From Escherichia phage SP15, in the sequence record AP019559: a DNA stretch of 64,000 nt. The stretch is one strand, 5' to 3'. Position numbers and translations under genes: made by a program. Positions 72-59,661 of the stretch are shown here, piece by piece. Each line of letters begins with the position of its first letter. Position 1 is the stretch's first letter. Below the pieces are notes generated by a model. The model did no database searches. It was not told the origin of the DNA and was given only the letters and a program-made list of their open reading frames with translations.

Positions 72-147
72 TGGTCAGTGCGGCAGGACTCGAACCTGCG
101 ACCCGAAGCATCCAAGGCTCCCACGCTACCAACTGCGCTACGCACTG
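72..147 (-). tRNA. tRNA-Pro (anticodon UGG)
   Basis: 7-bp acceptor CAGUGCG/CGCACUG, D-stem GCGC/GCGU, anticodon stem GGAGC/GCUUC, loop CUUGGAU, T-arm GCAGG-UUCGAGU-CCUGC, encoded CCA. Confidence 0.7.
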
Positions 148-156
148 TTAATTCTT

Positions 157-354
157 TTATTGTGGGGGGATATTAATAATTCGTCCATCTACACAATAAA
201 CGGTACTAGGGATTGTACTGTATATGTAGAAATTCTTTATATTACTCTCTCCGCCACAGAAATTTTTAGCAAATTCATACTCTTTATTAATGGTTGAGTC
301 AAGTTTAAAACAACCAGTAAGTAGGAATACAGATAGCAATAAAACTTTCTTCAT
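157..354 (-). CDS. small putative lipoprotein (signal peptide with lipobox LLTGC)
   Basis: 65-aa ORF, N-terminal MKKVLLLSVFLLTGC, 3 further Cys in mature part; upstream TATAAT and AGAGAAGGAAA RBS on minus strand. Confidence 0.5.
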   Translation of the reverse strand: MKKVLLLSVFLLTGCFKLDSTINKEYEFAKNFCGGESNIKNFYIYSTIPSTVYCVDGRIINIPPQ

Positions 355-564
355 TTTGCTTTCCTTCTCTTCACTTTATAAAATATATTATACAGAGAAT
401 TAAGTAAAATAGCAAATGAATTTTTAATAAATTTACTTATTGTGTAGGCCACCTGGAGGCTATGAACCCCACGGCTGACAAAGAAGTTTGCGAGACTTCT
501 CTTAAAAGCCAGAATAGACCCGCCGATCTATCGGAACCTACATAATAAGTAAACTTTATAGTGT

Positions 565-685
565 CATTCTAGACAGGACTCGAACCTGTTATCACTTGTG
601 CGGACTTACGAGAACCATTCTTTCACTCGAATCGAACGAGCTTCTGCCCTAGCCAAGCTGGTTTCCCCATCAACCACGCTAGAAT
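565..685 (-). ncRNA. atypical tRNA-like RNA, about 121 nt, with two T-arm-like hairpins
   Basis: Perfect 7-bp terminal helix AUUCUAG/CUAGAAU, 3' T-arm ACAGG-UUCGAGU-CCUGU, internal hairpin GCUCG-UUCGAUU-CGAGU; too long for a canonical tRNA, no clean anticodon arm, no encoded CCA. Confidence 0.35.
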
Positions 686-807
686 GTTTGATTGTTTTCA
701 GTGCAAGAGTCCGAGTCTTGGACACGACCGCTTCGCAAGTACATAGGCAGCTTATCATGAGTCAGCACTTCCGAATTGCTAGCCCCGTGTTCTGCACTGA
801 AATTTTA

Positions 808-1155
808 TTAGTTTAACCGTAAAGTATTATCTACTTCACCATTAATTGTTCGGCATTCCTCTGGGATTGCTGGTGTAGCCTTGTATTCCCACCACTCAGC
901 ACCATCATATTCCCCACGTTCTAGCCAAGTTCCATCGGCAAACCATACATTACCATAAAGTAATTGTCCACCGTATCCAGAATCATATTCAAAGTCTAGG
1001 TTATTAAGAAACCCCTCAATGTCTTCTTCTGTATAACCTAAAGGTAATACCCAGACTTTTTTGTCCCCATAATACCCAAATTCTATTTTAATACACTTAA
1101 CTTTAGAATTGGTATTTTTTAAGGCGAGTAACAGCTCTTCTTTAGCATTACGCAT
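808..1155 (-). CDS. hypothetical protein
   Basis: 115-aa ORF between tRNA genes. Confidence 0.5.
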   Translation of the reverse strand: MRNAKEELLLALKNTNSKVKCIKIEFGYYGDKKVWVLPLGYTEEDIEGFLNNLDFEYDSGYGGQLLYGNVWFADGTWLERGEYDGAEWWEYKATPAIPEECRTINGEVDNTLRLN

Positions 1156-1180
1156 AGTATATTCTCATACTGAATTAAGT

Positions 1181-1257
1181 TGGCGCGACCGATGGGATTT
1201 GAACCCACATTCTCTCCCGTGACAGGGGAGTACCATTACCAAGCCAGCCCCGGTCGC
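1181..1257 (-). tRNA. tRNA-Asp (anticodon GUC)
   Basis: Acceptor GCGACCG/CGGUCGC, anticodon stem CUCCC/GGGAG, loop CUGUCAC, T-loop UUCAAAU, encoded CCA. Confidence 0.7.
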
Positions 1258-1266
1258 ATAATTCAT

Positions 1267-1452
1267 TTACTCAGCTTTGAGTTTTTCAATAGCTGCATTA
1301 AGTTCTTTAAGAAACTCTTTTCGTACATTAAGACGATTGAGACTTACTAGTATATCGTGTTTAAGTTCTTCGATGTATTTCTTTTCAACTTCAATATTGT
1401 TGATAGTGCTATCACGATGAACTTCTAGCTGCGCAATTACATTCTTGGACAT
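1267..1452 (-). CDS. hypothetical protein (coiled-coil-like)
   Basis: 61-aa ORF with GAGGAAAC RBS. Confidence 0.4.
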   Translation of the reverse strand: MSKNVIAQLEVHRDSTINNIEVEKKYIEELKHDILVSLNRLNVRKEFLKELNAAIEKLKAE

Positions 1453-1554
1453 GCTTGTTTCCTCAGTTATTAATGAAAATGGTATCTGTGGCTGAATTCG
1501 ATGTCAGCAATGATAGCTGGTTGGCTACCGGTTTACTTAACTCTACACAGAATT

Positions 1555-1637
1555 TGGCGGGCCGTGTAGGATTCGAACCTACGTTGTCTTTCGACATGGA
1601 TTAACAGTCCACCGCCAAACCGCTTGGCTAACGACCC
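1555..1637 (-). tRNA. tRNA-Asn (anticodon GUU) with unusually long 13-nt variable region
   Basis: Acceptor GGGUCGU/ACGGCCC (one G-U), D-stem GCCA/UGGC, anticodon stem GUGGA/UCCAU, loop CUGUUAA, variable GUCGAAAGACAAC, T-arm GUAGG-UUCGAAU-CCUAC, CCA. Confidence 0.6.
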
Positions 1638-1789
1638 TAAATTTATATTGCTGACTAGGATTTTCACCTAGACGGAGTTAGCACCGTAGCGTGTAGCGGC
1701 ATACCTCTCCAAACCGTGCCTCATCTTTCAATTACGGAGACAGTGTTCCTACGCGTGCCTGAATTGATTCAACAATTCTTCCAGCAAAT

Positions 1790-1865
1790 TGGACGACCGC
1801 ATGAGATTTGAACTCACATAAAAAGGATTTGCAATCCTTCGCCTAAGCCCTTCAGCCAACGGTCG
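1790..1865 (-). tRNA. tRNA-Cys (anticodon GCA)
   Basis: Acceptor CGACCGU/GCGGUCG, anticodon stem AAGGA/UCCUU, loop UUGCAAA, T-arm GUGAG-UUCAAAU-CUCAU, CCA. Confidence 0.65.
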
Positions 1866-1934
1866 GTTTATCTTGTTCTGTCATGTTGCTTCTCCAGTTC
1901 AATTTATGTAATTATTATACAGAACTTTTGGAAA

Positions 1935-2207
1935 CTAAGCAACTACATTTTTTAAGAATTTGATGCCTTTCTTTTTCTTCTTATATTTCCACGTTAATGG
2001 ATTCTGTCGATTATGAACGCTTGAGATCTTTGTCTCGTCAAAGTTCTTCAATATCATGTAATCACAGGATAATTGTTCTAGTAGAATGTGATCACCGTCA
2101 AAAGCGTATACATAAGGCTGTTGACTAACACGATAATGATAGACTTTGTTAATTCTACGTTTCAGCGACTTATCAGCGCAGTAAATAAAGAAGTTTTCAG
2201 GATGCAT
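1935..2207 (-). CDS. hypothetical protein
   Basis: ORF track 1935..2222 begins at TTG; internal ATG at 2207 follows AAGGAG with 6-nt spacing. Confidence 0.45.
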   Translation of the reverse strand: MHPENFFIYCADKSLKRRINKVYHYRVSQQPYVYAFDGDHILLEQLSCDYMILKNFDETKISSVHNRQNPLTWKYKKKKKGIKFLKNVVA

Positions 2208-2224
2208 CAGCAGCTCCTTCAATT

Positions 2225-2299
2225 TGGTGCACCCTGTTCGTATCGAACGAACCTCTCAAGCTCTTCAGGCAAGCGCTAATCCATCTCAGCTAAAGGTGC
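2225..2299 (-). tRNA. tRNA-like element, possible pseudo-tRNA (anticodon arm does not fold)
   Basis: Good 7-bp acceptor GCACCUU/AGGGUGC, T-arm GUUCG-UUCGAUA-CGAAC and CCA, D-stem GCUG/UAGC, but no 5-bp anticodon stem found. Confidence 0.35.
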
Positions 2300-2305
2300 A
2301 AATTT

Positions 2306-2382
2306 TGGCAAACCTACTAGGACTCGAACCTAGACCGTACGGTTTTGGAGACCGACATGCTGTCCAGTAACACTCTAGGAAT
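2306..2382 (-). tRNA. tRNA-Trp candidate (anticodon CCA), acceptor stem with two U-U mismatches
   Basis: Anticodon stem UCGGU/ACCGU, loop CUCCAAA, T-arm CUAGG-UUCGAGU-CCUAG, CCA; acceptor AUUCCUA/UAGGUUU imperfect. Confidence 0.5.
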
Positions 2383-2390
2383 GCAGAAAT

Positions 2391-2467
2391 TGGCGTCCTG
2401 TGCGGGGATCGAACCCGCAAATCCTACCTTGAAAGGGTAGTGACTTTACCAGTTTGTCTAACAGGAC
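2391..2467 (-). tRNA. tRNA-Glu (anticodon UUC)
   Basis: Acceptor GUCCUGU/ACAGGAC, anticodon stem CUACC/GGUAG, loop CUUUCAA, T-arm GCGGG-UUCGAUC-CCCGC, CCA. Confidence 0.7.
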
Positions 2468-2474
2468 TTAAATT

Positions 2475-2565
2475 TGGTGTTGGATGATGGAGTCGAACCA
2501 CCCGAGACCCTTCCGAGTCGGCAGATTTACAGTCTGCTTCGCTACCTCTACGATACTAATCCAAC
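2475..2565 (-). tRNA. tRNA-Tyr (anticodon GUA), type II with long variable arm
   Basis: Acceptor GUUGGAU/AUCCAAC, anticodon stem GCAGA/UCUGC, loop CUGUAAA, long variable arm, T-arm GGUGG-UUCGACU-CCAUC, CCA. Confidence 0.7.
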
Positions 2566-2695
2566 ATATTTAGAAGTATTCAAAAATTCTCATTTAAACA
2601 CTTTTAAATATGTTTTCAAATTAGGTAACTATTATACCAAGTTTTAAGGCACTGAGCAAGTCAAATTTTAAAGAACTTGCTCAGTGCTATATTAG

Positions 2696-2971
2696 TTAGT
2701 CGAACTTAGGAGTGACAGTTAAGGAGAACGGAAGTTCGAAAACTTCTTCACCCTCATTACTAACGGTAACTACACGACCTTTAAGTTCAGACATTAAAAT
2801 ATCAATATCAGCTTTTGCATCTGGAGCCATACCAGCTTCAACACATTTAGCTTTAACTTCCGGCAGAAGTTCGACATCGTAGAAATAAAGCCATTCAATC
2901 TCACCTTCCCAGCCTTCCCAGGATTTACAGATTGCACTTTCAATACCAGTTGCTACAACACGATTTTGCAT
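2696..2971 (-). CDS. hypothetical protein
   Basis: 91-aa ORF, GGAG RBS. Confidence 0.5.
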   Translation of the reverse strand: MQNRVVATGIESAICKSWEGWEGEIEWLYFYDVELLPEVKAKCVEAGMAPDAKADIDILMSELKGRVVTVSNEGEEVFELPFSLTVTPKFD

Positions 2972-3061
2972 TCGTTAACTCCTTCATCAATTTATACAAC
3001 TATTATATCAGAAATTTAAAGCAAAAGGCAAGTACATTTTTAAAAATTCTGTTTGGAGGAG

Positions 3062-3268
3062 CTAAACTCCAGATTCTTCAGCTAAGTCTAGGCTAATAAG
3101 AGTTATAGCCATAATTGCTGCACCGTGTTCTTTTTCTCCGGTGTTTTTAGCAGAGTCTATAATAGTCTTAATCTGTTCGTAATAGCCTTTTACTTCTTGT
3201 TCAATACCTGCCTCGGCTATCATGCCTTTAGTCATGATTCGTTGCATAGTAATTTCACGGTTAGCCAT
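3062..3268 (-). CDS. hypothetical protein
   Basis: 68-aa ORF, GGAGA RBS, start overlaps stop of upstream small ORF (TAATG-type coupling). Confidence 0.45.
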   Translation of the reverse strand: MANREITMQRIMTKGMIAEAGIEQEVKGYYEQIKTIIDSAKNTGEKEHGAAIMAITLISLDLAEESGV

Positions 3269-3428
3269 GATGTTTCTCCAGCTTCATTTTTAATAGTTTA
3301 CAAATGAAATCAACGTCTTCATCTGTACCTAGATCTCTATCTTCAAGAGTTGCCTTGAAGTTTTTAGTCAATTCCATGAGGATAACTTCTCTAGAACGAC
3401 GTGTTGGCGGAGGTGGATGTCTATACAT
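3261..3428 (-). CDS. small hypothetical protein (55 aa, Pro-rich N-terminus)
   Basis: Not in ORF track (below 60 aa); AAGGAA RBS 5 nt before ATG; translationally coupled to 3062..3268. Confidence 0.3.
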   Translation of the reverse strand: MYRHPPPPTRRSREVILMELTKNFKATLEDRDLGTDEDVDFICKLLKMKLEKHHG

Positions 3429-3443
3429 CTTATTTCCTTAGTT

Positions 3444-3520
3444 TGGTAGGGGTGGTGGGATTCGAACCCACAAAACCTGAATTTTAAGTCCAGTACCTAT
3501 GCCAATTCGATTACACCCCC
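3444..3520 (-). tRNA. tRNA with anticodon UAA (Leu-type anticodon but short variable loop)
   Basis: Acceptor GGGGGUG/CACCCCU, anticodon stem CUGGA/UUCAG, loop CUUAAAA, T-arm GUGGG-UUCGAAU-CCCAC, CCA; D-stem weak. Confidence 0.55.
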
Positions 3521-3527
3521 GTGTAGT

Positions 3528-3716
3528 TTAGTCAATTACTTTTGAGGCTTCAAGGTAGTCGATATAGTGTATGTTTTCTACCGTAATCATATAATCTGTC
3601 ACTTTATCCATAGCTTGGGCTTCAGAGGTAGCTCTGGCTAACCTATATCCTTTTTTATATTCATCCGGGTATTCTCTATCTTGGATAAACACAACATAAA
3701 CTATATATAGATCCAT
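3528..3716 (-). CDS. hypothetical protein
   Basis: 62-aa ORF. Confidence 0.4.
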   Translation of the reverse strand: MDLYIVYVVFIQDREYPDEYKKGYRLARATSEAQAMDKVTDYMITVENIHYIDYLEASKVID

Positions 3717-3725
3717 TTGTGACCT

Positions 3726-3803
3726 CTATTTAATTTGGTGGCTCCCCGAGGATTCGAACCTACGTACCTTCCGGTTATGAGCCGGGTGCTCATACCATAT
3801 GAG
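3726..3803 (-). tRNA. tRNA with anticodon CAU (Met/Ile type), weak T-stem
   Basis: Acceptor GGUUCUC/GGGAGCC, D-arm GCUC-AUAUGGUAU-GAGC, anticodon loop CUCAUAA, T-loop UUCGAAU but T-stem only 3 clean bp, CCA. Confidence 0.5.
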
Positions 3804-3809
3804 CTTGAG

Positions 3810-3898
3810 AACCAGAATTTGGCGGAAGAAGCGGGAATCGAACCCACAAGGCTATATTTCAAACCGACAGATTAGCAATCTGCTGCAATACCGTTATG
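3810..3898 (-). tRNA. tRNA-Ser (anticodon GCU), type II
   Basis: Acceptor GGAAGAA/UUCUUCC, anticodon stem GCAGA/UCUGU, loop UUGCUAA, long variable arm, T-loop UUCGAUU, CCA. Confidence 0.7.
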
Positions 3899-3929
3899 CT
3901 ATTCTTCCGAATTTATAAGATATATTATA

Positions 3930-4448
3930 TTAGAAATTTAGCTTCATAGCAAGAAAATTTTTCAAGTTTTCGGTAGACATCTCATCCACATCTACGGGAG
4001 AAACAAAGCCGTTTAATTTTCTAGCAAATTTTTCACCCGCAGGATCATTATCTCCGACAGCTACCAATTTAAAAGGTAGTAATTTCAGTTGCTTTAATAA
4101 CGCTTTTCCTGGAGAAGAACCCAACATTGCTAGGGCTGGATAACCAGCATTATGTAACGCAACTGCCTTAAATACAGATTCAGCAATCAATACTACTTTT
4201 TCATCTCCATTGAGAGTTTCTAGTCCCCATACACACTGGGTAGTAGAATAAGTAAAGTATTTAGCTTCAAAGGGGCACTTACCATGACCTTTTGGAGCAG
4301 AAGGATTATAAGTTTGATAGCCCCTCAACATCCCAGAGAAGTCATACAACGGGACTGTTAGCCATCCTTCCGGACTTAACCAGCAATGATATTTATCTGT
4401 ATCAAATCCTCTAGATAAGAGGTGCTGTGTTAGCTCATCAACATTCAT
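3930..4448 (-). CDS. stand-alone Toprim-domain protein (DnaG-like catalytic core)
   Basis: Motifs VVLIAESVFKAVALHNAGYPALAMLG and VAVGDNDPAGEKFARKL resemble the DnaG Toprim E...DxD core; start moved to ATG at 4448 (AGAGGA RBS), track extension reads through the promoter. Confidence 0.5.
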   Translation of the reverse strand: MNVDELTQHLLSRGFDTDKYHCWLSPEGWLTVPLYDFSGMLRGYQTYNPSAPKGHGKCPFEAKYFTYSTTQCVWGLETLNGDEKVVLIAESVFKAVALHNAGYPALAMLGSSPGKALLKQLKLLPFKLVAVGDNDPAGEKFARKLNGFVSPVDVDEMSTENLKNFLAMKLNF

Positions 4449-4623
4449 ATTTGGTTCCTCTTTCAAATTTATAGATATATTATACAGAGAATTTAGCATT
4501 CAAGCAATCAAATTTTTTAACTTTTTAGAGGAAAATCATAGGGCACTTAAGGATAGCAGATAAGTGGTGAGGACCAAAATTTGTGACCCCACTAAAAATT
4601 CAGGGGCAATTTTTAAAGACCCC

Positions 4624-4653
4624 TTGACATTTTCGCTGGGGTAGTGTAAAGTA
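4624..4653 (+). promoter_or_regulatory. sigma70-type promoter for the low-complexity cassette
   Basis: TTGACA (4624-4629), 17-nt spacer, TAAAGT; about 60 nt upstream of ATG 4714. Confidence 0.5.
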
Positions 4654-4713
4654 TATGTTATGGATGAGTGATCAAAGAGACACACATTTTCTATATACTA
4701 GGAGGTGTCAAAA

Positions 4714-5697
4714 ATGACAGAAGAAGTAGCTAAGAGTCCTGAGACCGTCGCTAGCGTTGCAGCAGAACTGCACCGTCACGAGGAATCAGATAAGAAAAAG
4801 TGGGAGAAGGTCAGAGCCTACGAAGAAAAACATCGTGAACACGATGATGAAGAAGATGACGATGAACATTGTCATAAATATGGAAAACATAAAATGCAAG
4901 AACCAGTAAACGTATTTACTAGTGGCTTCCCTGGCCTACTGGGTGGTTACCCAGCAAACGCAGGTGCTTTCGGTGGTGAAGGTATGGGACTATTCGGAGC
5001 TATCCTAATCGGTGCTCTATTAACAGGCGGATTCGGTGGTTTCGGTGGATTCGGTGGACGTGGTGTAGTTGGTGATGGTACCGCAGTTGATGCAGTACTT
5101 CAGAACCAAGATACCGCTAGTATTCTAGCAGCTATTAACACTACTCGTACAGAAGCTAACCAGGGTACTGGAGCTGTTTTAAGCGCAGTTAACAATGGGT
5201 TTAGCCAGACATCCCAAAACCAGAGCCGTGATACTCAGTCTGTACTAACTACGATCTATGGTACAGGTGCTAATCTGTCTAATCAGATCTGTCAGGAAAC
5301 TCGCAACGTTATTCAGGGTCAGTTCGATCTTTCTCGCCAGATTGATCAATCTTTCGCAGCTAATCAGATAGCTCGTGCACAAGATAAGTTTGATTCTGCA
5401 CAGATCGCTTTCCAGCAGACTTTACAAACTAATAACCAGTTTGCCGCTGTTCAGGCTCAGATGTGTGCTAACCAGAACTCTCTGGAACGTCAGATCGCTG
5501 AATGTTGCTGTGAACTTCAGACTGCTATCGCTGGTGTAACTACTGCTCGTATTCAGGATGAGTTAGATGCATGTCGCCTACGTGAAGCAATCGCTGCGGG
5601 TAACGGTGCTAACGGTCAGGTAATTAATCAAATCGCTGTAAGTCTTGGTGCTATCACTCAGACTCTGGCTGGTCTGCAGGCTAAACTGCCGGCTTAA
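4714..5697 (+). CDS. low-complexity membrane protein: His/acidic N-terminus, Gly-zipper TM segment, Q/N/S/T-rich C-terminal domain with CCC motif
   Basis: AGGAGG RBS 9 nt before ATG 4714; TM GLFGAILIGALLTGGFGGFGGFGG; codon usage rich in CGT/GGT/GCT/CTG. Confidence 0.6.
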   Translation: MTEEVAKSPETVASVAAELHRHEESDKKKWEKVRAYEEKHREHDDEEDDDEHCHKYGKHKMQEPVNVFTSGFPGLLGGYPANAGAFGGEGMGLFGAILIGALLTGGFGGFGGFGGRGVVGDGTAVDAVLQNQDTASILAAINTTRTEANQGTGAVLSAVNNGFSQTSQNQSRDTQSVLTTIYGTGANLSNQICQETRNVIQGQFDLSRQIDQSFAANQIARAQDKFDSAQIAFQQTLQTNNQFAAVQAQMCANQNSLERQIAECCCELQTAIAGVTTARIQDELDACRLREAIAAGNGANGQVINQIAVSLGAITQTLAGLQAKLPA

Positions 5698-5718
5698 TAT
5701 TAAGGGGAGGAGCCCATT

Positions 5719-6135
5719 ATGAGTAAATATGGTTTTGTAAATAACGGACTTAATCAAAGTATGGGCTCCCAGCAGCCCATTCCGGGTCTGGATAACCCCT
5801 ACTTACAACAATTGCAACAGCGTTTAGCAGAAGCGCAACAGATGCAACAACAACTCCAGCAAAACCCTGGAAGTGTGAGTCCTATGCAAATGATGCAGCA
5901 AATGAGCGGGCAGTCGCAAATGCCTCAACAAATGCAGCAACAGATGCCGCAGCAGCAAGTTCAGCAGCAAACCCAACAACCGCAGGTTTCTGCGGAAGGA
6001 CAGGCAGTACTAGCCCTTTTCGAAGACTTCACAAAGACAGAGGATGGGAAGCAGCTTGTATCACTTATGGGTAAGTTTAATAGCTTCTGCCAAAGCCAAG
6101 TTGCAAAAGCTCAAAATGGTGGTAATAACTCCTAA
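5719..6135 (+). CDS. Q-rich protein
   Basis: 138-aa ORF, RBS AGGGGAGGAG, about 30 percent Gln in central region. Confidence 0.55.
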   Translation: MSKYGFVNNGLNQSMGSQQPIPGLDNPYLQQLQQRLAEAQQMQQQLQQNPGSVSPMQMMQQMSGQSQMPQQMQQQMPQQQVQQQTQQPQVSAEGQAVLALFEDFTKTEDGKQLVSLMGKFNSFCQSQVAKAQNGGNNS

Positions 6136-6144
6136 GGAGAAATT

Positions 6145-6339
6145 ATGTGTTGCAGAAAACCTGTTTCGTGCTGCCCAATGCCTGTAGCACGTTGTTGCTC
6201 TCCAGCAATGTTTACACAAATACCGGCGTTCAATCCCTTTGCCTTTAAGCCTACTCTTATCCTGCCCCCTAGAGTAGATTTTCAGTCAAGATTGGCCTCC
6301 CGTATGGGTGGTTGCTGTACACCGAGAGTGTGGTTCTGA
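6145..6339 (+). CDS. Cys-rich small protein (paired CC motifs)
   Basis: 64-aa ORF, RBS TAAGGAGA, four CC pairs; followed by hairpin terminator. Confidence 0.5.
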   Translation: MCCRKPVSCCPMPVARCCSPAMFTQIPAFNPFAFKPTLILPPRVDFQSRLASRMGGCCTPRVWF

Positions 6340-6354
6340 AGAACCAAACAATAA

Positions 6355-6386
6355 AGCCCCTAGTCGAAAGACTTAGGGGCTTTTCT
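6355..6386 (+). terminator. rho-independent terminator after the low-complexity cassette
   Basis: Hairpin AGCCCCTAG...CTAGGGGCT followed by TTTTCTG. Confidence 0.65.
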
Positions 6387-6399
6387 GTATTTAAGATAA

Positions 6400-6436
6400 A
6401 AGAAAAGCCCTGCGCTCTCCAGGGAACGCAGGGCTT
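6400..6436 (-). terminator. rho-independent terminator after SPFH gene
   Basis: Hairpin GCCCTGCG...CGCAGGGC with U-run on minus strand. Confidence 0.6.
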
Positions 6437-6459
6437 ACTTCAGATGTTACATGCGGATA

Positions 6460-7407
6460 TTATTTATTACGCATATCCATGATCATTTGACCATCGTAGC
6501 CAGTACCTACCACAGTCTGTGGTACACCACCTTGATATTTCTGAGCACGAATCATTTCGACTTCCAGTTGTTTCCAACGAATCATCTCAGGAGTAATGGT
6601 ACGTTGCAGTGCGGCGTTAGCTTCAGCTTCTTTCTTAGCTGCGTACAGTTTAGCATCTGCGTCACGTTCATTAGCGATAGCTTGGTTGTTGCGAGCTTCA
6701 CGATCTGCTTCTGCTTGTTTAACTTTTTGCTGTGCTTCCTGTTCAACACGAGCTAATTCAGCTTTAGCAGCATTAACCTGTTCTTCACGAACTTTGGTAT
6801 TCTGTACCTGTTCCATGATTACCGGTGGCAAAGTAATATCCTGAAGGAATACCTGCTTAACTGTGTAACCATATGGGCGTGCATACTCTTCAACTTCCTG
6901 TTGAATTGCAGTTTGCAATTGAGCCTGAATTTTAGCATCAAACAAATCTTGTGCTTTAGGTACAGACTTACCAAACTCACGAATAGTAGACAGTAATTTT
7001 TCAGTTACATATTTGTCTAACGCTTGATCCTGAGTACCTGCGTTAATACGGTTAATTGGTGCCTTAGAACCATCAAACTGCAACATAACAGTCAGGTCAA
7101 CAGTGGATTTAAACTTATCCTGGCTAGGAACCTGAAGTTTATCTAATTTTACAGCAATATCTTTTGTACTAAAAGTGTCGAAAGATGCAAATGGGTTTAC
7201 AAGATGGAAACCTGGTAATACTGGGTTAGGATCTACTTTACCCAGAAATGTTTGGGTTTTAACCGTACCATCAGAAACAATAGTATATGAATTAAAGGCT
7301 AGAATCAAGCCTGCTAAACCAACTACAGCACCAATACCCCAACGTTTAATAGTACGAATTACTTTCTGCTCAGAAGTCAGTTCTTTCATATTTTTAGTAT
7401 TAAACAT
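6460..7407 (-). CDS. SPFH/band-7 (prohibitin/HflC-like) membrane protein
   Basis: N-terminal TM helix IGAVVGLAGLILAF, then band-7-like domain and Ala/Glu/Gln-rich coiled-coil typical of the SPFH family. Confidence 0.6.
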   Translation of the reverse strand: MFNTKNMKELTSEQKVIRTIKRWGIGAVVGLAGLILAFNSYTIVSDGTVKTQTFLGKVDPNPVLPGFHLVNPFASFDTFSTKDIAVKLDKLQVPSQDKFKSTVDLTVMLQFDGSKAPINRINAGTQDQALDKYVTEKLLSTIREFGKSVPKAQDLFDAKIQAQLQTAIQQEVEEYARPYGYTVKQVFLQDITLPPVIMEQVQNTKVREEQVNAAKAELARVEQEAQQKVKQAEADREARNNQAIANERDADAKLYAAKKEAEANAALQRTITPEMIRWKQLEVEMIRAQKYQGGVPQTVVGTGYDGQMIMDMRNK

Positions 7408-7440
7408 ATATTTCCTTTGTTTTAGTTACAGTTAATAAAA

Positions 7441-7515
7441 TTGGCCGAGGTGACAGGATTCGAACCTGCATAAAGGAATTTAGAAGACTCCTGCCTCTCC
7501 CTTAGACTACACCCC
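7441..7515 (-). tRNA. tRNA-Arg (anticodon UCU)
   Basis: Acceptor CGGGGUG/CACCUCG, anticodon stem GGAGU/AUUCC, loop CUUCUAA, T-arm GCAGG-UUCGAAU-CCUGU, CCA. Confidence 0.7.
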
Positions 7516-8029
7516 GTTTAAATATTTTTAAGAACTCTCGTAAAAACTCTTAAAAATACAGACGATACCGGGAGAGTCATAAGTCTCACTCATTAAGTAT
7601 TTCAAGACAAAATACAGTAACGTCTATTATTTTCCAGTTTAAGTCAGGGTGACTTAGTGGTTAGGTCCTGCGGTATATTGAGGACTCGGTTAGGCTTGGG
7701 GTCATGACTTCCCGCCTTTTGCTGCTACTCAACAGGAGTTATCGCGAATTACCTGTGCTATTGTGCACCATTAGTGACATCTCTCATGTCAGCATTTCCC
7801 ACTTTGTGGATAGCTTGAAAAACTACTCCGATATGGAGAAAAAACTTCACTATCCTAGAATACCTTCTAAAGTTCTTCTTTAGCCTGGACATAGTTAAAT
7901 CGTAATAAAACTATTCAGCAGACTGGTTGGTTAGCCTGGAACCAACTACCGCGTGGTTTAGGCAGTGCGCAACTAACCTCGGAAGCTTTTACGTTAAAAG
8001 CATCAGTTATCCAGTTCTTACCGACCGTA

Positions 8030-25091: not shown

Positions 25092-25520
25092 ATGTTCAAT
25101 AATGTGTTCTCTAAAGAAGCTAACCCAATATTAGTTAATTTTTGGCGTACTCTTCCAGCCAACCTGTACAATGAGGCTATTAATGCTCTGAAAATATGGT
25201 GTGAGAATAATGAAATCTCCTTTGCTTTTAAAGGCGAGGTTGAAGAGGCTCCCTGTATTGGTTTAATTGTGCAGGTGGAGGATGGTCTTGAAGAGATTGT
25301 CGGCTGGAAAGAGTTGGATGAAATGGGCTTGGTTTTTGCGTTAAACTATAAGCTGTTTATGCCCAATAAACACCGTATTGTTGTTAACTATAAAACCAAT
25401 GAATCTCCTGGTTTTCAAGTTAATGAACGGTATGGTTGGTCTTACTCACCGGAAGAGGTAAATGATGGTATCCAGAAACTTCGTCGTTTTGGTTATCAAA
25501 TTCCGGGTTTAACTGCCTAA
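25092..25520 (+). CDS. hypothetical protein, paralog A
   Basis: 142 aa; shares PCIG...W.EL...GL..ALN..LF.P...IPGL pattern with 25530..25922. Confidence 0.5.
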   Translation: MFNNVFSKEANPILVNFWRTLPANLYNEAINALKIWCENNEISFAFKGEVEEAPCIGLIVQVEDGLEEIVGWKELDEMGLVFALNYKLFMPNKHRIVVNYKTNESPGFQVNERYGWSYSPEEVNDGIQKLRRFGYQIPGLTA

Positions 25521-25529
25521 GGAGGCACA

Positions 25530-25922
25530 ATGGAACAAGTATATTGGCGTCAGATCGACCCTAGTTTGGTGAAGCGTGCAGAGAAGCTGCTACAACGTTG
25601 GTTGGGGGTAAGACAAGCCTCCTTCACTTTTCCGGAGCAGCAAATAGACGATCCCTGTATTGGTGTTTTCCTATCAGGCTACGCTAGGGAATGGGAATTG
25701 GATTGGAATGAATTGTCTGCTATGGGTTTAATTGTTGCACTAAATTTCTCTTTGTTCCATCCACGTGGTTTGGCCATATGTCGTGTGCCTGAGGACGGTT
25801 GTTCGCCCCATCTTTTACAGGTGGAAGATGATATTTGGGAGTACACTCCAGATATTCTCAAAGAAGCCAAAGAACAATTAAACCGTGTTGGAATTTATAT
25901 TCCAGGCCTGAATGATGAATGA
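25530..25922 (+). CDS. hypothetical protein, paralog B
   Basis: 130 aa, AGGAGG RBS. Confidence 0.5.
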   Translation: MEQVYWRQIDPSLVKRAEKLLQRWLGVRQASFTFPEQQIDDPCIGVFLSGYAREWELDWNELSAMGLIVALNFSLFHPRGLAICRVPEDGCSPHLLQVEDDIWEYTPDILKEAKEQLNRVGIYIPGLNDE

Positions 25923-26061
25923 TTTTTATTGGTTGACCTCTATAATCCGGGCTATTAGTGCTCGGATTATTGCCTAATCTTTCCAGCTAATTGACAGCAT
26001 GAATAAATTGTCATTGACAAATTGAATAGATTATGTAATAATATGTGTATTGGAGGTAAAG

Positions 26062-26514
26062 ATGTCGCTCACACAACAAGAACTTTTAGATAATTTCCGA
26101 TATGAAGATGGAAAATTATTTAGAACCACAGGAAGAAATGCAGGCAAGGAATGTTGTGTTTCAACGGGAAATGGGTATTATCGTATTTCTCTAGGTAGTA
26201 AAACTATGCTCCGACACAGAGCCATCTTCTTAATGCATCATGGTTATCTCCCTGATTTAGTAGATCATGAGAATACTATAAAAGGTGATGATCGTATTGA
26301 AAATCTTAGAGAGCAGACAGTATCCGGTAATCTAAGAAATATCAAATATAAGAAAGGAATGCATGTTTACCCTTCTGGTAGTAAGAACTGGCAAGTAGTA
26401 TTTACTATTAACCGTAAACGTATAGTTAAAGGAACATATGACAACTATGAGGTTGCATGTTCTATGGCCAAGATGTTTAGAGGTCAATTATACGGTAGGG
26501 AATCAATCCAGTAA
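26062..26514 (+). CDS. HNH homing endonuclease (HNH_3 plus AP2-like domain)
   Basis: HRAIFLMHHGYLPDLVDHENTIKGDDRIENLRE; GGAGG RBS before ATG 26062. Confidence 0.65.
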   Translation: MSLTQQELLDNFRYEDGKLFRTTGRNAGKECCVSTGNGYYRISLGSKTMLRHRAIFLMHHGYLPDLVDHENTIKGDDRIENLREQTVSGNLRNIKYKKGMHVYPSGSKNWQVVFTINRKRIVKGTYDNYEVACSMAKMFRGQLYGRESIQ

Positions 26515-27049
26515 AATTTCATTTGCAAGGGAGTATTATTTTATAGTATAATATTCCCATAAATGAGAGATATTAGTAAAAATTGATTTTGCTAATTTTT
26601 CTTGTTTACAATCCGCGATACGGAACAGTTAGGCTGCCCCATTAAGGGTTGTTTTAACTGTTACGTGTTAGTTTTTAAGCAAATAATTAATAGAATACTT
26701 AGCGATCTGCGTCCCGTAGGAACCCTGGTAAGGCCTCGAAGCAACCTAGATAGAGGTGGTTGTGAAGTGAGACGGGAGGAGTGAAAAACTCCGAGACGTG
26801 ATTCTGTAAGTTATATTGCATCTAGTATGAGCTAGTATATGAAGCATTAGGTGAGCAAATCTGGCTTAGCGGCCATCCTCAAGGATTTGTGCGGTATAGC
26901 AAAGCAGCAGCGCAGCGTGAAAGTGGAAGTTGCCACCCCACTTCAGTATTTGCGATTAATTTGTTGAGAAATTGACAGTAACAGTTGTTCTATTCTTTCT
27001 GAATAGTCCTAAAGAAAACTTATTTCATTTCCAACACAGGAGTATTGTT

Positions 27050-29839
27050 GTGTTTTCAATCCTACAAGGTCATGCAGGATTTCATCGCGATTTAGCCACA
27101 GGCAATTGGCGAGAAGTTAAGGCAGAAGATTATCTTTTTGCTAAAAGATTTTCCTCAAAGCATCCCGAAGGTAAACCAGCTTCAATGCCCTTCAAGTTTG
27201 ATGTAATTGATGAAGTTGATCCTCAAACCCTAGTAGAAATGCTTCCTCTTATGAGACGTTTAACGTCTGACCCTCATATCGTTGCGGTACGAGGTCGATG
27301 TCTTGCACCTAAAAATAATGTGCGACGTAAGAAGGGCAACTTTAATGTATCTAATCCAAGTCATATAATCGCAATGGATGTGGATGGTATTGTAGATACA
27401 GGAGGTTGTAACAAGTTTGATCTTGTTGGCATGGCGCGTCATATTATTAGGATGTTGAATAGTATTAGTGAGGATATGTTTCCTCTTGATGCAGGGTTTA
27501 TTGCTCATGCATCATCTTCGGCTGGCCTAAAACCAGGTATCCGAATGCACTTAATACTAGAATCTAATGTTAAAGTTACACAGGGTCAGATCAAGTTCTT
27601 ATTTACATCTATCAACGAAAGTAGTAGACAAAAGTATGGCTTTGATATTGCCGACTTAGCTTATTACTCTTCCGTACAGCTCCACTATTTTGCAGATCCT
27701 TTATTTACTGATGGTATAGTTGATCCGTTTAAAGCGGAGGGTGCTTCACGTCTGGTATTTGTTAAAGGCTCAAAAGTAAATTTACCTAATAATCTAGTTG
27801 ACTATGAAACAACTAGAGGAGAGTTTAAAGAGGAATTCTACTCTTTACTCGATCAAATTAAAGGTAAAAAAGCCGCCTCCGATAAAGTAGAGGAAACTAT
27901 CAGCGAACTAGAAGAAGCTGAGGATGGAGTGTATCTACGTATTATTCCTAAACTCTATCACAGGGCTTTAGAGGATGGTGTTGATTTTGCATGGCTAGAA
28001 AAAGAAATCCGCCCAGCCTTATCAGAGTATATTGCAACTAAAGATAATAGTCGTAATATTCAAGATTATTTTAACAACGGTAGAAAACAGGCTCTGAAAG
28101 CGTTTGTTAATAATTCTAAACGTGATATACCGGATGTTTTAAAAGGTATTCCACTTAAAAAGCTAGAAACTAACTCTCTAGAGACTGATAACTTCTTGAA
28201 ATTAAATACTGTACCACCAGAAGGTTATATGACTTTTGTAAAAGCAAGTCTAGGTACAGGTAAAACTACGGCGGTTGTGCGTTGGTTAGATTCAGGAGTT
28301 ATTAAGGGTAATTTCTTAGCAATTACCAATACTCGAGCACTGGTATCTTCAAATGCTAAGAAATTTAGTGCAGGACAATATGATAAGTCTGTAGATATGC
28401 TTAATTTTAAGCGTGGCGCTATTGACCGTATGTCCACAACTATACATTCTTTGCATAAGTTCAAGAGTTTTATTGGTCAAATCGATGCAATCTTTATCGA
28501 TGAATGTGACGCTGTAATGAATGACCTATTATTCGCCCCGGTTGTTAAACAACGTCGTGAATGTATTCAGGTTCTTCGGGATATTCTTGCAACTGCAAAA
28601 ATCATTATATTATCTGATGGTGATATTAGTGCTGAAACAATTGAAGCATATGGTTCTTTGATTGAGTTTGATAAACCGGTTGCATTTTATAATCATCACC
28701 GTAAGATGCTGTCAAAAGCTCATGCTTATGAGTTCCCTGATGAATCTAGTATTTGGGTTGCACTTCAGACCTCTCTAGAGATGGGTGAGAAATCTATTCT
28801 GGTATCTGATTGTGGGCCGGATGAGCTGAATGAGAAAGGTATGGCACTGCGTCGTAATACGGGTGCGTTAGTTAAGGAAATCCATTCAAACTCTACCTCA
28901 GATGTGGATATTAGACGTATTCTGGATTACACAACTAATGAACTAATTGATCAACAAATTGATTGTTTATTATGTAGTCCATCCGTAACGAGTGGTGTTG
29001 ACTTTAACTATTTTGATAACGTATTTGTTATTACTAGAACTAGTAATCAAGCGCCAAACATGCGTTTCCAAGCAATCAGGCGCGACCGTGGTGCTCAGAA
29101 TATCTATTATTTTATTGATAAATCCACTAGTGGATTCTCCGCAGGTTCTGAACAATATAATATTGATGAGGGTTGGCTGGAGTTAGCACAGCAATTATAC
29201 GCACGTCGCAGGGAGCTGGAATCTAGGAACTATACTAGTACTTTACGTTATTACTTACTTGATCAGGGTGCAACTATTGATATTTTCAGTGAAAGCTGGG
29301 GAACTATTGAAGGTGCTGGTAAAGAGTATACAGAAGAGCGAATCAAAGCTATTCTGCACTCAACTCCTGATTATTGTGCTCCACGTCATGCGGATGCGTA
29401 TGAAGCTAAACTACTTCTTGTTCGCTATTATCATCTGGAGTCTATTAAAGATGTAACCGTTGAGCATGTTGAACAATATATCAAAGATAAGCCGAATGAT
29501 CGAGCTGCATTCTTCCATAAGATGCATGAGATGTTCTGGGAAGATATTAAGAAGTGTTCAAATGTCACTATCAAACCTTTCATAGAAGCTCTGAAAGGTA
29601 AGAAGAAAGATTTCTTCCTTAAAACAGGTCAGAGTGCTAACCCAAAATATGCTAGAATGTATCTTGGTATGATGGGTATTGGTAAAGATATGAACACGGA
29701 GAATATCGTAGACTGGTACAGAACCTATTGTAAAATCGAGTGTATGCCAATTCCTTTCAAATTCATGACAGAGGAAGAACGTCAGATGCACGAGGAAGCA
29801 ATGTCAGAGCTAGGTGCTAGAAATGACAGTGAAGAATAA
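27050..29839 (+). CDS. large P-loop NTPase, putative replication initiation/origin-binding helicase-like protein
   Basis: Walker A SLGTGKTTAV and Walker B IFIDECDAV; likely GTG start 27050 after AGGAG (track start 26972 is TTG inside a TTGACA box). Confidence 0.6.
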   Translation: MFSILQGHAGFHRDLATGNWREVKAEDYLFAKRFSSKHPEGKPASMPFKFDVIDEVDPQTLVEMLPLMRRLTSDPHIVAVRGRCLAPKNNVRRKKGNFNVSNPSHIIAMDVDGIVDTGGCNKFDLVGMARHIIRMLNSISEDMFPLDAGFIAHASSSAGLKPGIRMHLILESNVKVTQGQIKFLFTSINESSRQKYGFDIADLAYYSSVQLHYFADPLFTDGIVDPFKAEGASRLVFVKGSKVNLPNNLVDYETTRGEFKEEFYSLLDQIKGKKAASDKVEETISELEEAEDGVYLRIIPKLYHRALEDGVDFAWLEKEIRPALSEYIATKDNSRNIQDYFNNGRKQALKAFVNNSKRDIPDVLKGIPLKKLETNSLETDNFLKLNTVPPEGYMTFVKASLGTGKTTAVVRWLDSGVIKGNFLAITNTRALVSSNAKKFSAGQYDKSVDMLNFKRGAIDRMSTTIHSLHKFKSFIGQIDAIFIDECDAVMNDLLFAPVVKQRRECIQVLRDILATAKIIILSDGDISAETIEAYGSLIEFDKPVAFYNHHRKMLSKAHAYEFPDESSIWVALQTSLEMGEKSILVSDCGPDELNEKGMALRRNTGALVKEIHSNSTSDVDIRRILDYTTNELIDQQIDCLLCSPSVTSGVDFNYFDNVFVITRTSNQAPNMRFQAIRRDRGAQNIYYFIDKSTSGFSAGSEQYNIDEGWLELAQQLYARRRELESRNYTSTLRYYLLDQGATIDIFSESWGTIEGAGKEYTEERIKAILHSTPDYCAPRHADAYEAKLLLVRYYHLESIKDVTVEHVEQYIKDKPNDRAAFFHKMHEMFWEDIKKCSNVTIKPFIEALKGKKKDFFLKTGQSANPKYARMYLGMMGIGKDMNTENIVDWYRTYCKIECMPIPFKFMTEEERQMHEEAMSELGARNDSEE

Positions 29840-59050: not shown

Positions 59051-59661
59051 AAACTTTCCCGTAAATTTAATGAGATGCCGGAGTATGTTCCGTTATTATT
59101 TAATGTAGATCCGAAAGCATCACCATTCATGAGTTTTGTTCTAAATAATATCCCATTAAATACTGGTTTTTCAGCTCCAGTAGTAGTTACAAATAAATCA
59201 GGATATACGTTAATAGACCATGAATTACCAGATCTATTAAATGATGTTATTTTATAAACTTTTGGGTGATTGGATAACTTAAATAAATCACCTGGTTTAG
59301 GAATACCGGTAAGAACACCTTTTGTATCCATAGTAATATTGGAACCTTTCTGTCCAGCAGGTATACTTACTAAGTTAGTATTGCCACTAACCCTAAAAGC
59401 CTCATACTGAGGTAATATAACATCAATGTAGCCTCCTGTCCTCTTATACTCTAGAATAAAGGAATCTAGAACACTGAATTCATCAGGAAACAATTCTGGG
59501 TAAGAAATGTTTATACCCCAGTACTGAGCGGATACCTTAACTTCGTTAACTTTACCATTAGGTAACTCATCACGAATTACTGGGTCATTATCAATCAGGT
59601 TAACACTTTCGAATCCTAAGCCTGAAAGTTCTGGATTCGTGTATGGGTCTGGTAATCTCAT
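59047..59661 (-). CDS. pb9: distal tail protein (T5 pb9-like, Dit)
   Basis: 204 aa directly downstream of the tape measure gene; GGAGA RBS. Confidence 0.7.
   Translation of the reverse strand: MRLPDPYTNPELSGLGFESVNLIDNDPVIRDELPNGKVNEVKVSAQYWGINISYPELFPDEFSVLDSFILEYKRTGGYIDVILPQYEAFRVSGNTNLVSIPAGQKGSNITMDTKGVLTGIPKPGDLFKLSNHPKVYKITSFNRSGNSWSINVYPDLFVTTTGAEKPVFNGILFRTKLMNGDAFGSTLNNNGTYSGISLNLRESL

Follow-up and report, generated by a model that had tools for sequence, protein, structure and literature searches.

A candidate structured RNA family preceding the initiator helicase gene of T5-like bacteriophages

The window analysed here is a stretch of 64,000 nucleotides (nt) from Escherichia phage SP15 (record AP019559), a T5-like phage (Tequintavirus), and the subject is the whole of the 535-base-pair (bp) gap, positions 26515-27049, which separates an HNH endonuclease gene from obp, a gene with a GTG start codon at 27050 that encodes a protein of 929 amino acids (aa). 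The locus is 99.5% identical to that of Escherichia phage BB1. An initial annotation, made by a model from the letters alone, had described this gap as non-coding, situated between an HNH endonuclease and a large ATPase, and had proposed it as a replication origin or operator to which the downstream ATPase binds or, alternatively, as a structured RNA. Both neighbours are as claimed: the upstream gene (26050-26514) carries the HNH domain PF13392, and obp (27050-29839) the herpes origin-binding-protein helicase domain PF02399 at residues 394-533. The product of obp is a homologue of T5.108, which is annotated 'replication origin binding', and because the position of its PF02399 domain matches that in the biochemically studied bipolar helicase D2 of T5 (residues 392-532; PMC3632103), it is identified with that enzyme. 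In T5 the counterpart gap spans 58928-59544, i.e. 58.9-59.5 kb of 121.75 kb or 48.5-49% of the genome, and the only features annotated there are a terminator (58952-58976) and a promoter (58999-59073). The analysis makes it highly probable that the region is a structured RNA element of the + strand. That it comprises an early promoter and a structured obp leader of ≈ 490 nt, whose long closing stem P1 would be cut by host RNase III with release of the folded core, is the reading we favour, tentatively and with slightly more doubt than assent.

The features that had first drawn attention to the gap are all there. The inverted repeat has arms of 12 nt at 26620-26631 and 26655-26666, 92% complementary and spaced by 23 nt, around the core AACAGTTA (26624-31) and TAACTGTT (26655-62); a third copy of the heptamer AACAGTT occupies 26980-26986, 64 nt upstream of the start codon; the GGAGU-GAAAA-ACUCC hairpin (GGAGTGAAAAACTCC) was mapped in this analysis to 26778-26792; and the GC content is 0.445-0.475 over 26600-26899, as against 0.29-0.39 on either side. 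Three heptamer copies within 363 nt, where the local expectation is ≈ 0.14, are not a matter of chance. Counted on both strands of the window, the heptamer occurs 24 times versus 12.6 expected, a number that none of 100 shuffles reached; the three copies at this locus leave this genome-wide excess unexplained.

With respect to the pairing partners, copy 1 and copy 2 form the repeat as originally drawn; in most T5-type phages a C·A mismatch lies at the centre of this pairing, and in phages of Pectobacterium, Pantoea and Klebsiella no such pairing exists. Between copy 2 (AACUGUUAC) and copy 3 (GUAACAGUU), which are complementary, changes occur in concert: the window has G-C, T5 has G·U, AKFV33 and Eps7 have A-U (AACUAUUAC/GUAAUAGUU), and AAS21 has GCUACUAC/GUAGUGGC. 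As far as comparison of sequences can tell, the repeats are helices of a large + strand RNA and not DNA binding sites. A switch between the copy 1:copy 2 hairpin and the long stem P1 was also considered and was rejected, the copy 1:copy 2 pairing not being conserved.

The helix of copies 2 and 3 is the base of P1, the 5' arm of which (26655-26699, + strand) holds copy 2 and the 3' arm of which (26945-26987, + strand) holds the third heptamer. In nine lineages the two flanks at fixed offsets from the invariant CUUAGCGG were folded and compared with shuffled controls; in each of them P1 emerged as a duplex of 30-41 bp, the arm sequences being unrelated, with z ranging from -3.0 to -7.7. The stem is AU-rich, and 57 of 322 pairs (18%) are G·U. 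On the opposite strand the duplex energy of the arms drops by about half in most lineages, the domain as a whole loses 12-31 kcal/mol on the minus strand in all nine, and with DNA energy parameters the base of P1 does not form, z being only -1.7. This strand asymmetry, together with the result for DNA parameters, argues that the folded molecule is the + strand, in the sense of obp, and most simply RNA. Along these lines, helices that tolerate G·U but not A·C, the asymmetry looked for in a structured RNA, and that are much weaker on the minus strand point to a single-stranded molecule of + sense rather than a duplex protein site. Enclosed by P1 is a core of ≈ 330 nt, in which nine further helices form (P2 to P9, including P3b and P6a, and excluding P8, which lies 3' of P1).

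The core itself provides the second line of evidence. From an alignment (window 26693-26956) of five window-type variants with Pantoea phage AAS21 and the Pectobacterium phages DU_PP_V and My1, RNAalifold derived a fold of 62 pairs, 37 of which are changed on both sides in at least one sequence with the pairing kept. Standard pairs occupy 95.2% of the cells, compared with 35-48% when the 3' partners were slid by 1-3 columns; the slid versions had double changes in 5-11 pairs, and none of 500 shuffles reached the observed value on any of five measures. Compensatory changes beyond controls, the general mark of a structured RNA, are therefore present. In a cross-lineage table of the helices common to both core types (described below), 26 of 33 pairs are double-changed and 238 of 241 cells are canonical, with 12 G·U and no A·C, figures that are biased towards pairing by the choice of the helix arms by hand. 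The structured-RNA alternative of the initial annotation is strongly supported by the combination of P1 in nine lineages and this covariation of the core.

All helices of the core lie on the + strand. P2 is composed of a 5' strand GCG-AU-CUGCGU (26702-26712), featuring a conserved 2-nt bulge, and a 3' strand GCGCAGCGU (26910-26918); its nine pairs are 100% paired, four of them changed on both sides, and CUGUG/CACAG is found in the T5 type and CUAGA/UCUAG in Klebsiella phage Sugarland. The P3-P4 arm (26713-26776), which corresponds to helices 2-6 of the core fold, contains P3 (26713-17/26772-76; three of five pairs changed on both sides), a small hairpin (26724-33), P3b (26735-38/26768-71) and P4 (26741-46/26758-63; four of six pairs changed on both sides), helices 2 and 5 being paired in 100% of their cells, helix 6 in 98% and the small helices 3 and 4 in 75-83%. 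P5 is the GGAGU-GAAAA-ACUCC hairpin (26778-26792), two of its four pairs being compensatory, with stem variants AGAGU/ACUCU, CCGU/ACGG, AGGG/CCCU and GGUC/GACC. In the P6 domain (26810-26900), P6 (26810-19/26891-900; 7 of 10 pairs compensatory) encloses P6a (26820-26/26846-52; three of seven) and P7 (26855-61/26884-90; six of seven), and inside P7 sits a hairpin GGC-UUAGCG-GCC (26863-26874) with an invariant loop. This UUAGCG loop is identical in the window, T5, Eps7, AAS21, DU_PP_V, My1, Sugarland, Providencia phage PR1 and the Proteus phages, and the 3-bp stem beneath it covaries (GAC/GUC, GCC/GGU). The last hairpin, P9 (26921-26943), pairs AAGUGG with CCACUU (26921-26/26938-43) around the conserved loop AAGUUGCCAC, three of the six pairs being compensatory; among T5-type phages AUAUGA/UCAUAU is set against GUAUGA/UCAUAC.

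Smaller hairpins flank the domain on the same strand. P0 (UUAGUAAAA/UUUUGCUAA, 26573-26595) was read from the sequence and has a counterpart in the same place in DU_PP_V (UUAGACAA/UUGUCUAA). It is followed by a near-invariant 5' motif, UACGGAACAGUUAGGCUGCCCCA (26619-26641), which holds repeat copy 1 (26624-26630), forms a small hairpin GG-AA-CAG-UUAGG-CUG-CC and occurs a single time per T5-like genome (32 contigs of IMG/VR); two positions of its stem covary in AAS21 and Sugarland (A-U for G-C, and G-C for A-U). GAACA of the 5' motif (26622-26627) can pair with UGUUU or UGUUC at the obp start codon (Met-Phe; 27050-27056) in the window, T5, My1, Sugarland and DU_PP_V, a by-eye reading of 5 bp only that could be chance. 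Directly 3' of P1 stands P8, CUAUUC-UUUCU-GAAUAG (26990-27006), and stems of differing sequence occur at the same place in AAS21, DU_PP_V, Sugarland and PR1.

Conservation across T5-like phages, which the initial annotation had named as a check, is borne out by 444 phage records in which the region is present, always directly upstream of obp; the element lies on the same strand as that gene in Markadamsvirinae, Sugarlandvirus and the Providencia and Proteus phages. A nine-phage alignment has near-identical flanks, namely the promoter, the 5' motif and the last ≈ 70 nt, and a central portion of ≈ 300 nt that comes in two classes, between which BLAST finds no alignment: a window-type core, including that of Pantoea phage AAS21, and a T5-type core, including those of T5, AKFV33, Eps7 and Stitch. 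Both classes are equal in length and have the short islands GAUCUG, GCUUAGCGGCC and GCGCAGC/GCACAGC in common. The start codon lies 416-441 nt downstream of the 5' motif in all lineages of E. coli, Salmonella, Pantoea, Pectobacterium and Klebsiella phages, and the invariant island CUUAGCGG, like the UUAGCG hairpin, lies 243-254 nt from the leader start (the 5' motif) in all these lineages as well as in Providencia phage PR1. Folding of eight T5-type variants from two genera gave the same topology, i.e. P2 with the same bulge, P6 enclosing a hairpin and P7 with the UUAGCG hairpin, then P9, with six compensatory pairs. The element is kept across phages of Escherichia, Salmonella, Pantoea, Pectobacterium, Klebsiella and Providencia, and probably in Proteus phages too.

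Within a type, core identity amounts to 92-95%, as compared with a third-codon identity of 64-70% in obp where this gene has diverged; between the window and STG2 (L026) the values are 0.95 for the core and 0.70 for the third codon positions, and between T5 and an SH9-like phage the T5-type cores are ≈ 92% and the obp genes 80-92% identical in nucleotides. Since the core is more conserved within a type than are the silent sites of obp, its primary sequence is under purifying selection. Between types, core identity is 0.56, as between genera, and that of the obp silent sites 0.66. The two core types have been exchanged among otherwise 96% identical phages, irrespective of the obp allele. A co-evolution of RNA type and obp allele had been suggested by the co-divergence of window and T5, and was rejected because obp alleles do not track core type.

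The statement that the gap holds no credible open reading frame (ORF) can be upheld. Both small ORFs vary in length or vanish among relatives, without a Pfam match: the one of 60 aa (26602-26784) shrinks to 50 aa in close relatives and does not exist in T5, and the one of 38 aa (26851-26967) has 38, 51 or 66 aa among relatives or else is absent. Such truncation, extension and loss is not the behaviour of a protein-coding gene, and the substitutions in the region are compensatory in RNA helices, which counts against a gene of this kind as well. Recent GenBank records (OR896820, PV577657 and others) place genes for a 'hypothetical protein' on the leader (at 1703-1885 and 1952-2068 of L001, and at 1703-1855 and 1952-2068 of L002); these genes coincide with the non-conserved ORFs and are probably spurious.

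A sigma-70 promoter, TTGCAA-18-TATAAT, is predicted at 26523-26552 of the + strand, with 10 of 12 matches in the promoter scan, a spacing within the range of 16-18 nt and conservation of the hexamers in relatives. It is the homologue of the T5 promoter annotated at 58999-59073; the leader promoter is annotated in AKFV33 as well, and TTGCAA or TTGACA followed by TATAAT recurs before the leader in Pectobacterium, Klebsiella, Providencia and Proteus phages. We infer a transcription start near 26559, from which the leader RNA would extend over ≈ 490 nt to obp. A second, weaker promoter-like site (26583-26612; 9 of 12 matches), which P0 overlaps, is not conserved outside the E. coli and Salmonella phages. 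No terminator-like site was found on the + strand within 26000-27500, and a promoter upstream with no terminator before obp makes the RNA the 5' leader of the obp message; the Shine-Dalgarno sequence AGGAG and the GTG start of obp (27038-27052, + strand) follow without a terminator between RNA and gene.

The HNH gene upstream is an optional insertion, present in the window, BB1, AKFV33 and S132 and missing from T5, chee24 and Eps7. It has a promoter-like site of its own (26014-26042) and replaces the T5 terminator together with the -35 and spacer part of the leader promoter, homology to T5 resuming at ≈ 26547. A direct repeat of 25 nt, 76% identical (26516-26540/27022-27046), brackets the entire leader: what immediately follows the stop codon of the HNH gene resembles what immediately precedes the ribosome-binding site of obp. 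This repeat might have been left behind when the HNH cassette was acquired.

Searches of databases returned no known family. Rfam 15 gave no match at E <= 1 over 25500-28000, and at E <= 10 over 26540-27060 three matches at chance level (13-14 bits, versus thresholds of 34-100). Resemblances to RNase P (ACAGAAC...CCGGCU, GGCUUA) and to tRNA (GGUUCG) are regarded as coincidence, Rfam lending them no support, and a guide-like match to the genome elsewhere was discarded, k-mer sharing being at chance and nothing of at least 14 nt being held in common with the rest of the window. A covariance model (R1), built on the 3' half, recovers the window-type relatives; of the sequences outside its training set it places only Sugarland, correctly but weakly, at 12.7 bits. 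The T5-type, Providencia, Proteus and Vibrio leaders escape it, and the window yields no second copy. The homology of those other leaders consequently rests on flanks, anchors and topology, not on model score. A metagenome scan with the 5' motif produced near-identical sequences and one chance match, without new diversity, and a protein word search for more diversity gave two matches. Within the searches made, the element is restricted to Demerecviridae, and the literature searched contains no description of this region or of a T5 origin sequence. The element is put forward as a candidate new RNA family of Demerecviridae, undescribed in the databases and literature searched.

In the Vibrio demerecviruses (L013 705-1416, L014 773-1635, L015 643-1362; also L089, L091 and L094), an ORF-poor leader of 650-860 nt lies between a strong promoter and obp; three Vibrio lineages have the motif GUGACUAACC in common, and VspSw_1 carries an internal duplication of ≈ 150 nt. 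Homology of these leaders to the enterobacterial RNA was not established, and their alignment was too poor for structural claims. Phage vB_EcoS-26175I (L009, ≈ 868-964; columns 168-263 of alignment A1) has an insertion of ≈ 97 nt in the P0 part of the leader, flanked by duplicated TTTTTCTT and with an inverted repeat of its own, ATTTACGG...CCGTAAAT, which looks like a miniature mobile element; the regions of Kenya-K36, Kenya-K45, phC11 and atrejo are likewise ≈ 100 nt longer. Elsewhere in the window, 11 tRNA genes form a cluster on the minus strand (72-7516), as is usual for T5.

The obp gene is a hot spot of divergence. Several alleles exist with ≈ 85% nucleotide identity, third-codon identity falling to 0.60-0.73 over the first 1.8 kb (versus L003, L026 and L038), in contrast to the flanking genes, which are 96.5% identical. 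Compared with the T5 protein, residues 551-900 encoded in the window are 100% identical and residues 351-400 only 66%. For the N-terminal 390 residues (27050-28219) no Pfam or PDB relative was found, and a single-sequence AlphaFold model was unusable, with a predicted local distance difference test score (pLDDT) of 35. D110, D112, H167 and D202 in this part are invariant across eight distant homologues; our guess is that they may resemble the DxD...H...D pattern of archaeo-eukaryotic primase-polymerases.

It can be rationalized how such an element might work. The + strand transcript would fold into P0, the small 5' hairpin, P1 closing the core, and P8, followed by the ribosome-binding site, and it would act as RNA, in cis or jointly with the initiator gene that it always precedes. 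RNase III of E. coli accepts any duplex of two helical turns or more as a substrate, requiring ≈ 22 bp. P1, with 30-41 pairs in all nine lineages, is well above this minimum and would be part of an abundant early transcript, so that cutting by RNase III is to be expected, and cleavage of P1 by the host enzyme would likely be the first step. This event would excise the core as a discrete, stem-closed RNA of ≈ 300 nt, much as rRNA is excised from its precursor, and would give the obp message a new 5' end at the P8 hairpin; synthesis of the initiator might then become independent of the original 5' end made by the very strong early promoter. From its size and conservation, the core is taken to do more than provide a cleavage site, and the invariant loops UUAGCG and GUUGCCA could be contact points for a protein or another RNA.

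Several points weigh against this reading. No T5 transcript map was found in the literature searched, and the leader transcript, its ends and its cleavage are predictions drawn from the DNA. A plain RNase III site has no need of a 330-nt core, the function of which the reading leaves unexplained. The bulge positions of P1 are not conserved between lineages, and the covariation fits single-stranded DNA of the + strand as well as it fits RNA of the + strand. Core types are uncoupled from obp alleles, so that nothing indicates the obp product as the binding partner. Furthermore, no conserved expression platform of the kind that a riboswitch or attenuator possesses, be it a terminator or a helix sequestering the Shine-Dalgarno sequence, was found in the leader, and an anti-Shine-Dalgarno switch at P8 was rejected, the duplex energies not exceeding those of shuffles (z from -1.4 to +0.8).

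Among the other explanations, a cis-acting sensor or operator that is not excised comes first: the core would bind some metabolite or tRNA, or else a protein, perhaps D2, and thereby tune the translation or decay of obp. T4 gp32 and gp43 do bind their own leaders. The constant position directly upstream of obp, on its strand and with no terminator in between, is what such a device would display, as are invariant loops and junctions within covarying helices, and in seven lineages the predicted folds leave most Shine-Dalgarno residues paired. Their predicted partners, however, differ between lineages, so that no conserved partner of the Shine-Dalgarno sequence was found, and there is no terminator or antiterminator; no riboswitch or leader family of Rfam matched even at E <= 10, and the core types are not coupled to the obp alleles. 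A stem of ≈ 40 bp, moreover, would hardly escape RNase III in an enterobacterial host. We regard this explanation as rather unlikely.

A distinctly unlikely explanation is that of a transcript-mediated origin, in which the structured RNA would form an R-loop or a primer where the helicase and the replisome start DNA synthesis, in the manner of ColE1 RNA II or of the oriF and oriG transcripts of T4. The region adjoins the initiator gene, as replicon modules usually do; it lies at 48.5-49% of the T5 genome; and its leader of ≈ 490 nt is comparable with RNA II (555 nt). An electron microscopic study by Bourguignon et al. in 1976 reportedly placed the first-round origin near the middle of T5 DNA. 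On the other hand, no AT-rich unwinding element is found downstream of the structure, the region contains no iterons but only direct repeats of chance size, there is no turn of the GC skew at the locus (skew in this genome follows gene orientation), and no antisense promoter of the RNA I type exists inside the leader. The sequence offers nothing that would separate an origin from an ordinary leader. A bolder version would combine this idea with excision: the core, cut from the leader of the initiator, might serve as an RNA cofactor of replication initiation and work with the D2 helicase to fire the primary mid-genome origin of T5, for instance by forming an R-loop, by priming or by acting as a scaffold, instead of regulating obp. 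We consider it a long shot.

Improbable, too, is an independent phage non-coding RNA that acts in trans, e.g. as a decoy or sponge for a host protein or a defence system, and merely uses the obp promoter. The core is a self-contained domain with a closing stem of the processing type, and very different core types are swapped independently of the obp allele, a pattern that is common at loci of host-phage conflict. Strict synteny with obp across distant genera speaks against it, GGA motifs are not enriched (7 versus ≈ 5.5 expected in a by-eye count), there is no match of at least 14 nt to the rest of the window, and no known family was hit.

The origin or operator of the initial annotation, be it a duplex DNA site with AACAGTTA repeats bound by the ATPase or a structured single-stranded initiation site of the + strand, is very improbable: although three heptamers in 363 nt lie beside a gene for a UL9-like helicase, and the single-stranded variant is equally compatible with the covariation, no positive evidence for this reading emerged: the region has neither iterons nor an AT-rich unwinding element, its core being GC-richer than its surroundings, the copy 1:copy 2 repeat is not conserved while copies 2 and 3 covary as a helix, the 18% of G·U pairs in P1 would be mismatches in a DNA palindrome, the base of P1 fails to form with DNA parameters (z only -1.7), and the relatives from Pectobacterium, Pantoea and Klebsiella do not have the repeat sequence.

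For seventy years T5 has served as a model phage, and its promoters are in standard use in the laboratory; to our knowledge, no sequence-level definition of its origin exists. Annotations leave the 0.5 kb ahead of its initiator helicase gene empty or fill it with spurious small ORFs. The element ranks among the larger structured RNAs known for any lytic coliphage and offers a concrete, mutable handle on how T5 controls or starts replication. It is also a candidate new family for RNA databases and entails a correction of annotation for several hundred phage genomes used in phage therapy and biocontrol. Should the RNA-cofactor idea be true, an RNA-dependent origin would exist in a classical lytic phage.

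Among known systems, herpes simplex oriS with its protein UL9 invites comparison through the UL9 helicase domain in the downstream protein and an inverted repeat nearby; the boxes of oriS, however, are duplex sites flanking an AT-rich spacer, whereas RNA-type helices with G·U pairs and compensatory changes are found here. The large RNAs ROOL, GOLLD, HEARO (omega RNA), raiA and OLE, which are often associated with phages and whose functions, where known, are recent findings, resemble the element in their hundreds of nucleotides, many covarying helices, invariant loops and phage-encoded nature, and HEARO adjoins IscB just as this element adjoins the gene of a nucleic-acid enzyme; in contrast to them, it has no Rfam match at E <= 10, is confined to Demerecviridae in the searches made and is embedded in an mRNA leader. 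ColE1 RNA II and the oriF and oriG transcripts of T4 are likewise transcripts of several hundred nucleotides from a strong promoter, the folding of RNA II setting its replication function, and the element has its place in a replication gene cluster. Here, unlike in ColE1, there is no antisense regulator, no evident hybrid pair of G-rich and C-rich sequences and no mapped origin, and the transcript would continue into a coding gene.

Like the element, the pseudoknot in the T4 gene 32 leader and the gene 43 operator of T4 and RB69 are RNA structures that related phages conserve within the 5' leader of a gene for replication. Those operators measure 20-40 nt and overlap the ribosome-binding site, whereas the element exceeds them in size more than tenfold, stops ≈ 40 nt short of the Shine-Dalgarno sequence and has no conserved pairing with it. 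Closest are the RNase III stalks of the 16S and 23S rRNA precursors of E. coli, the R sites of the T7 early mRNA and the lambda N leader, where a long duplex flanks a folded RNA or stands in an mRNA leader. With the T7 and lambda sites the element also shares the setting in an early phage transcript made by host RNA polymerase and a duplex, P1, above the substrate minimum; these sites are plain 20-30 bp hairpins that enclose nothing functional, in contrast to a stem that encloses a conserved core of ≈ 330 nt and whose cleavage is predicted. By analogy, the element would work most like an rRNA-type processing stalk around a functional RNA, set in the leader of a phage mRNA.

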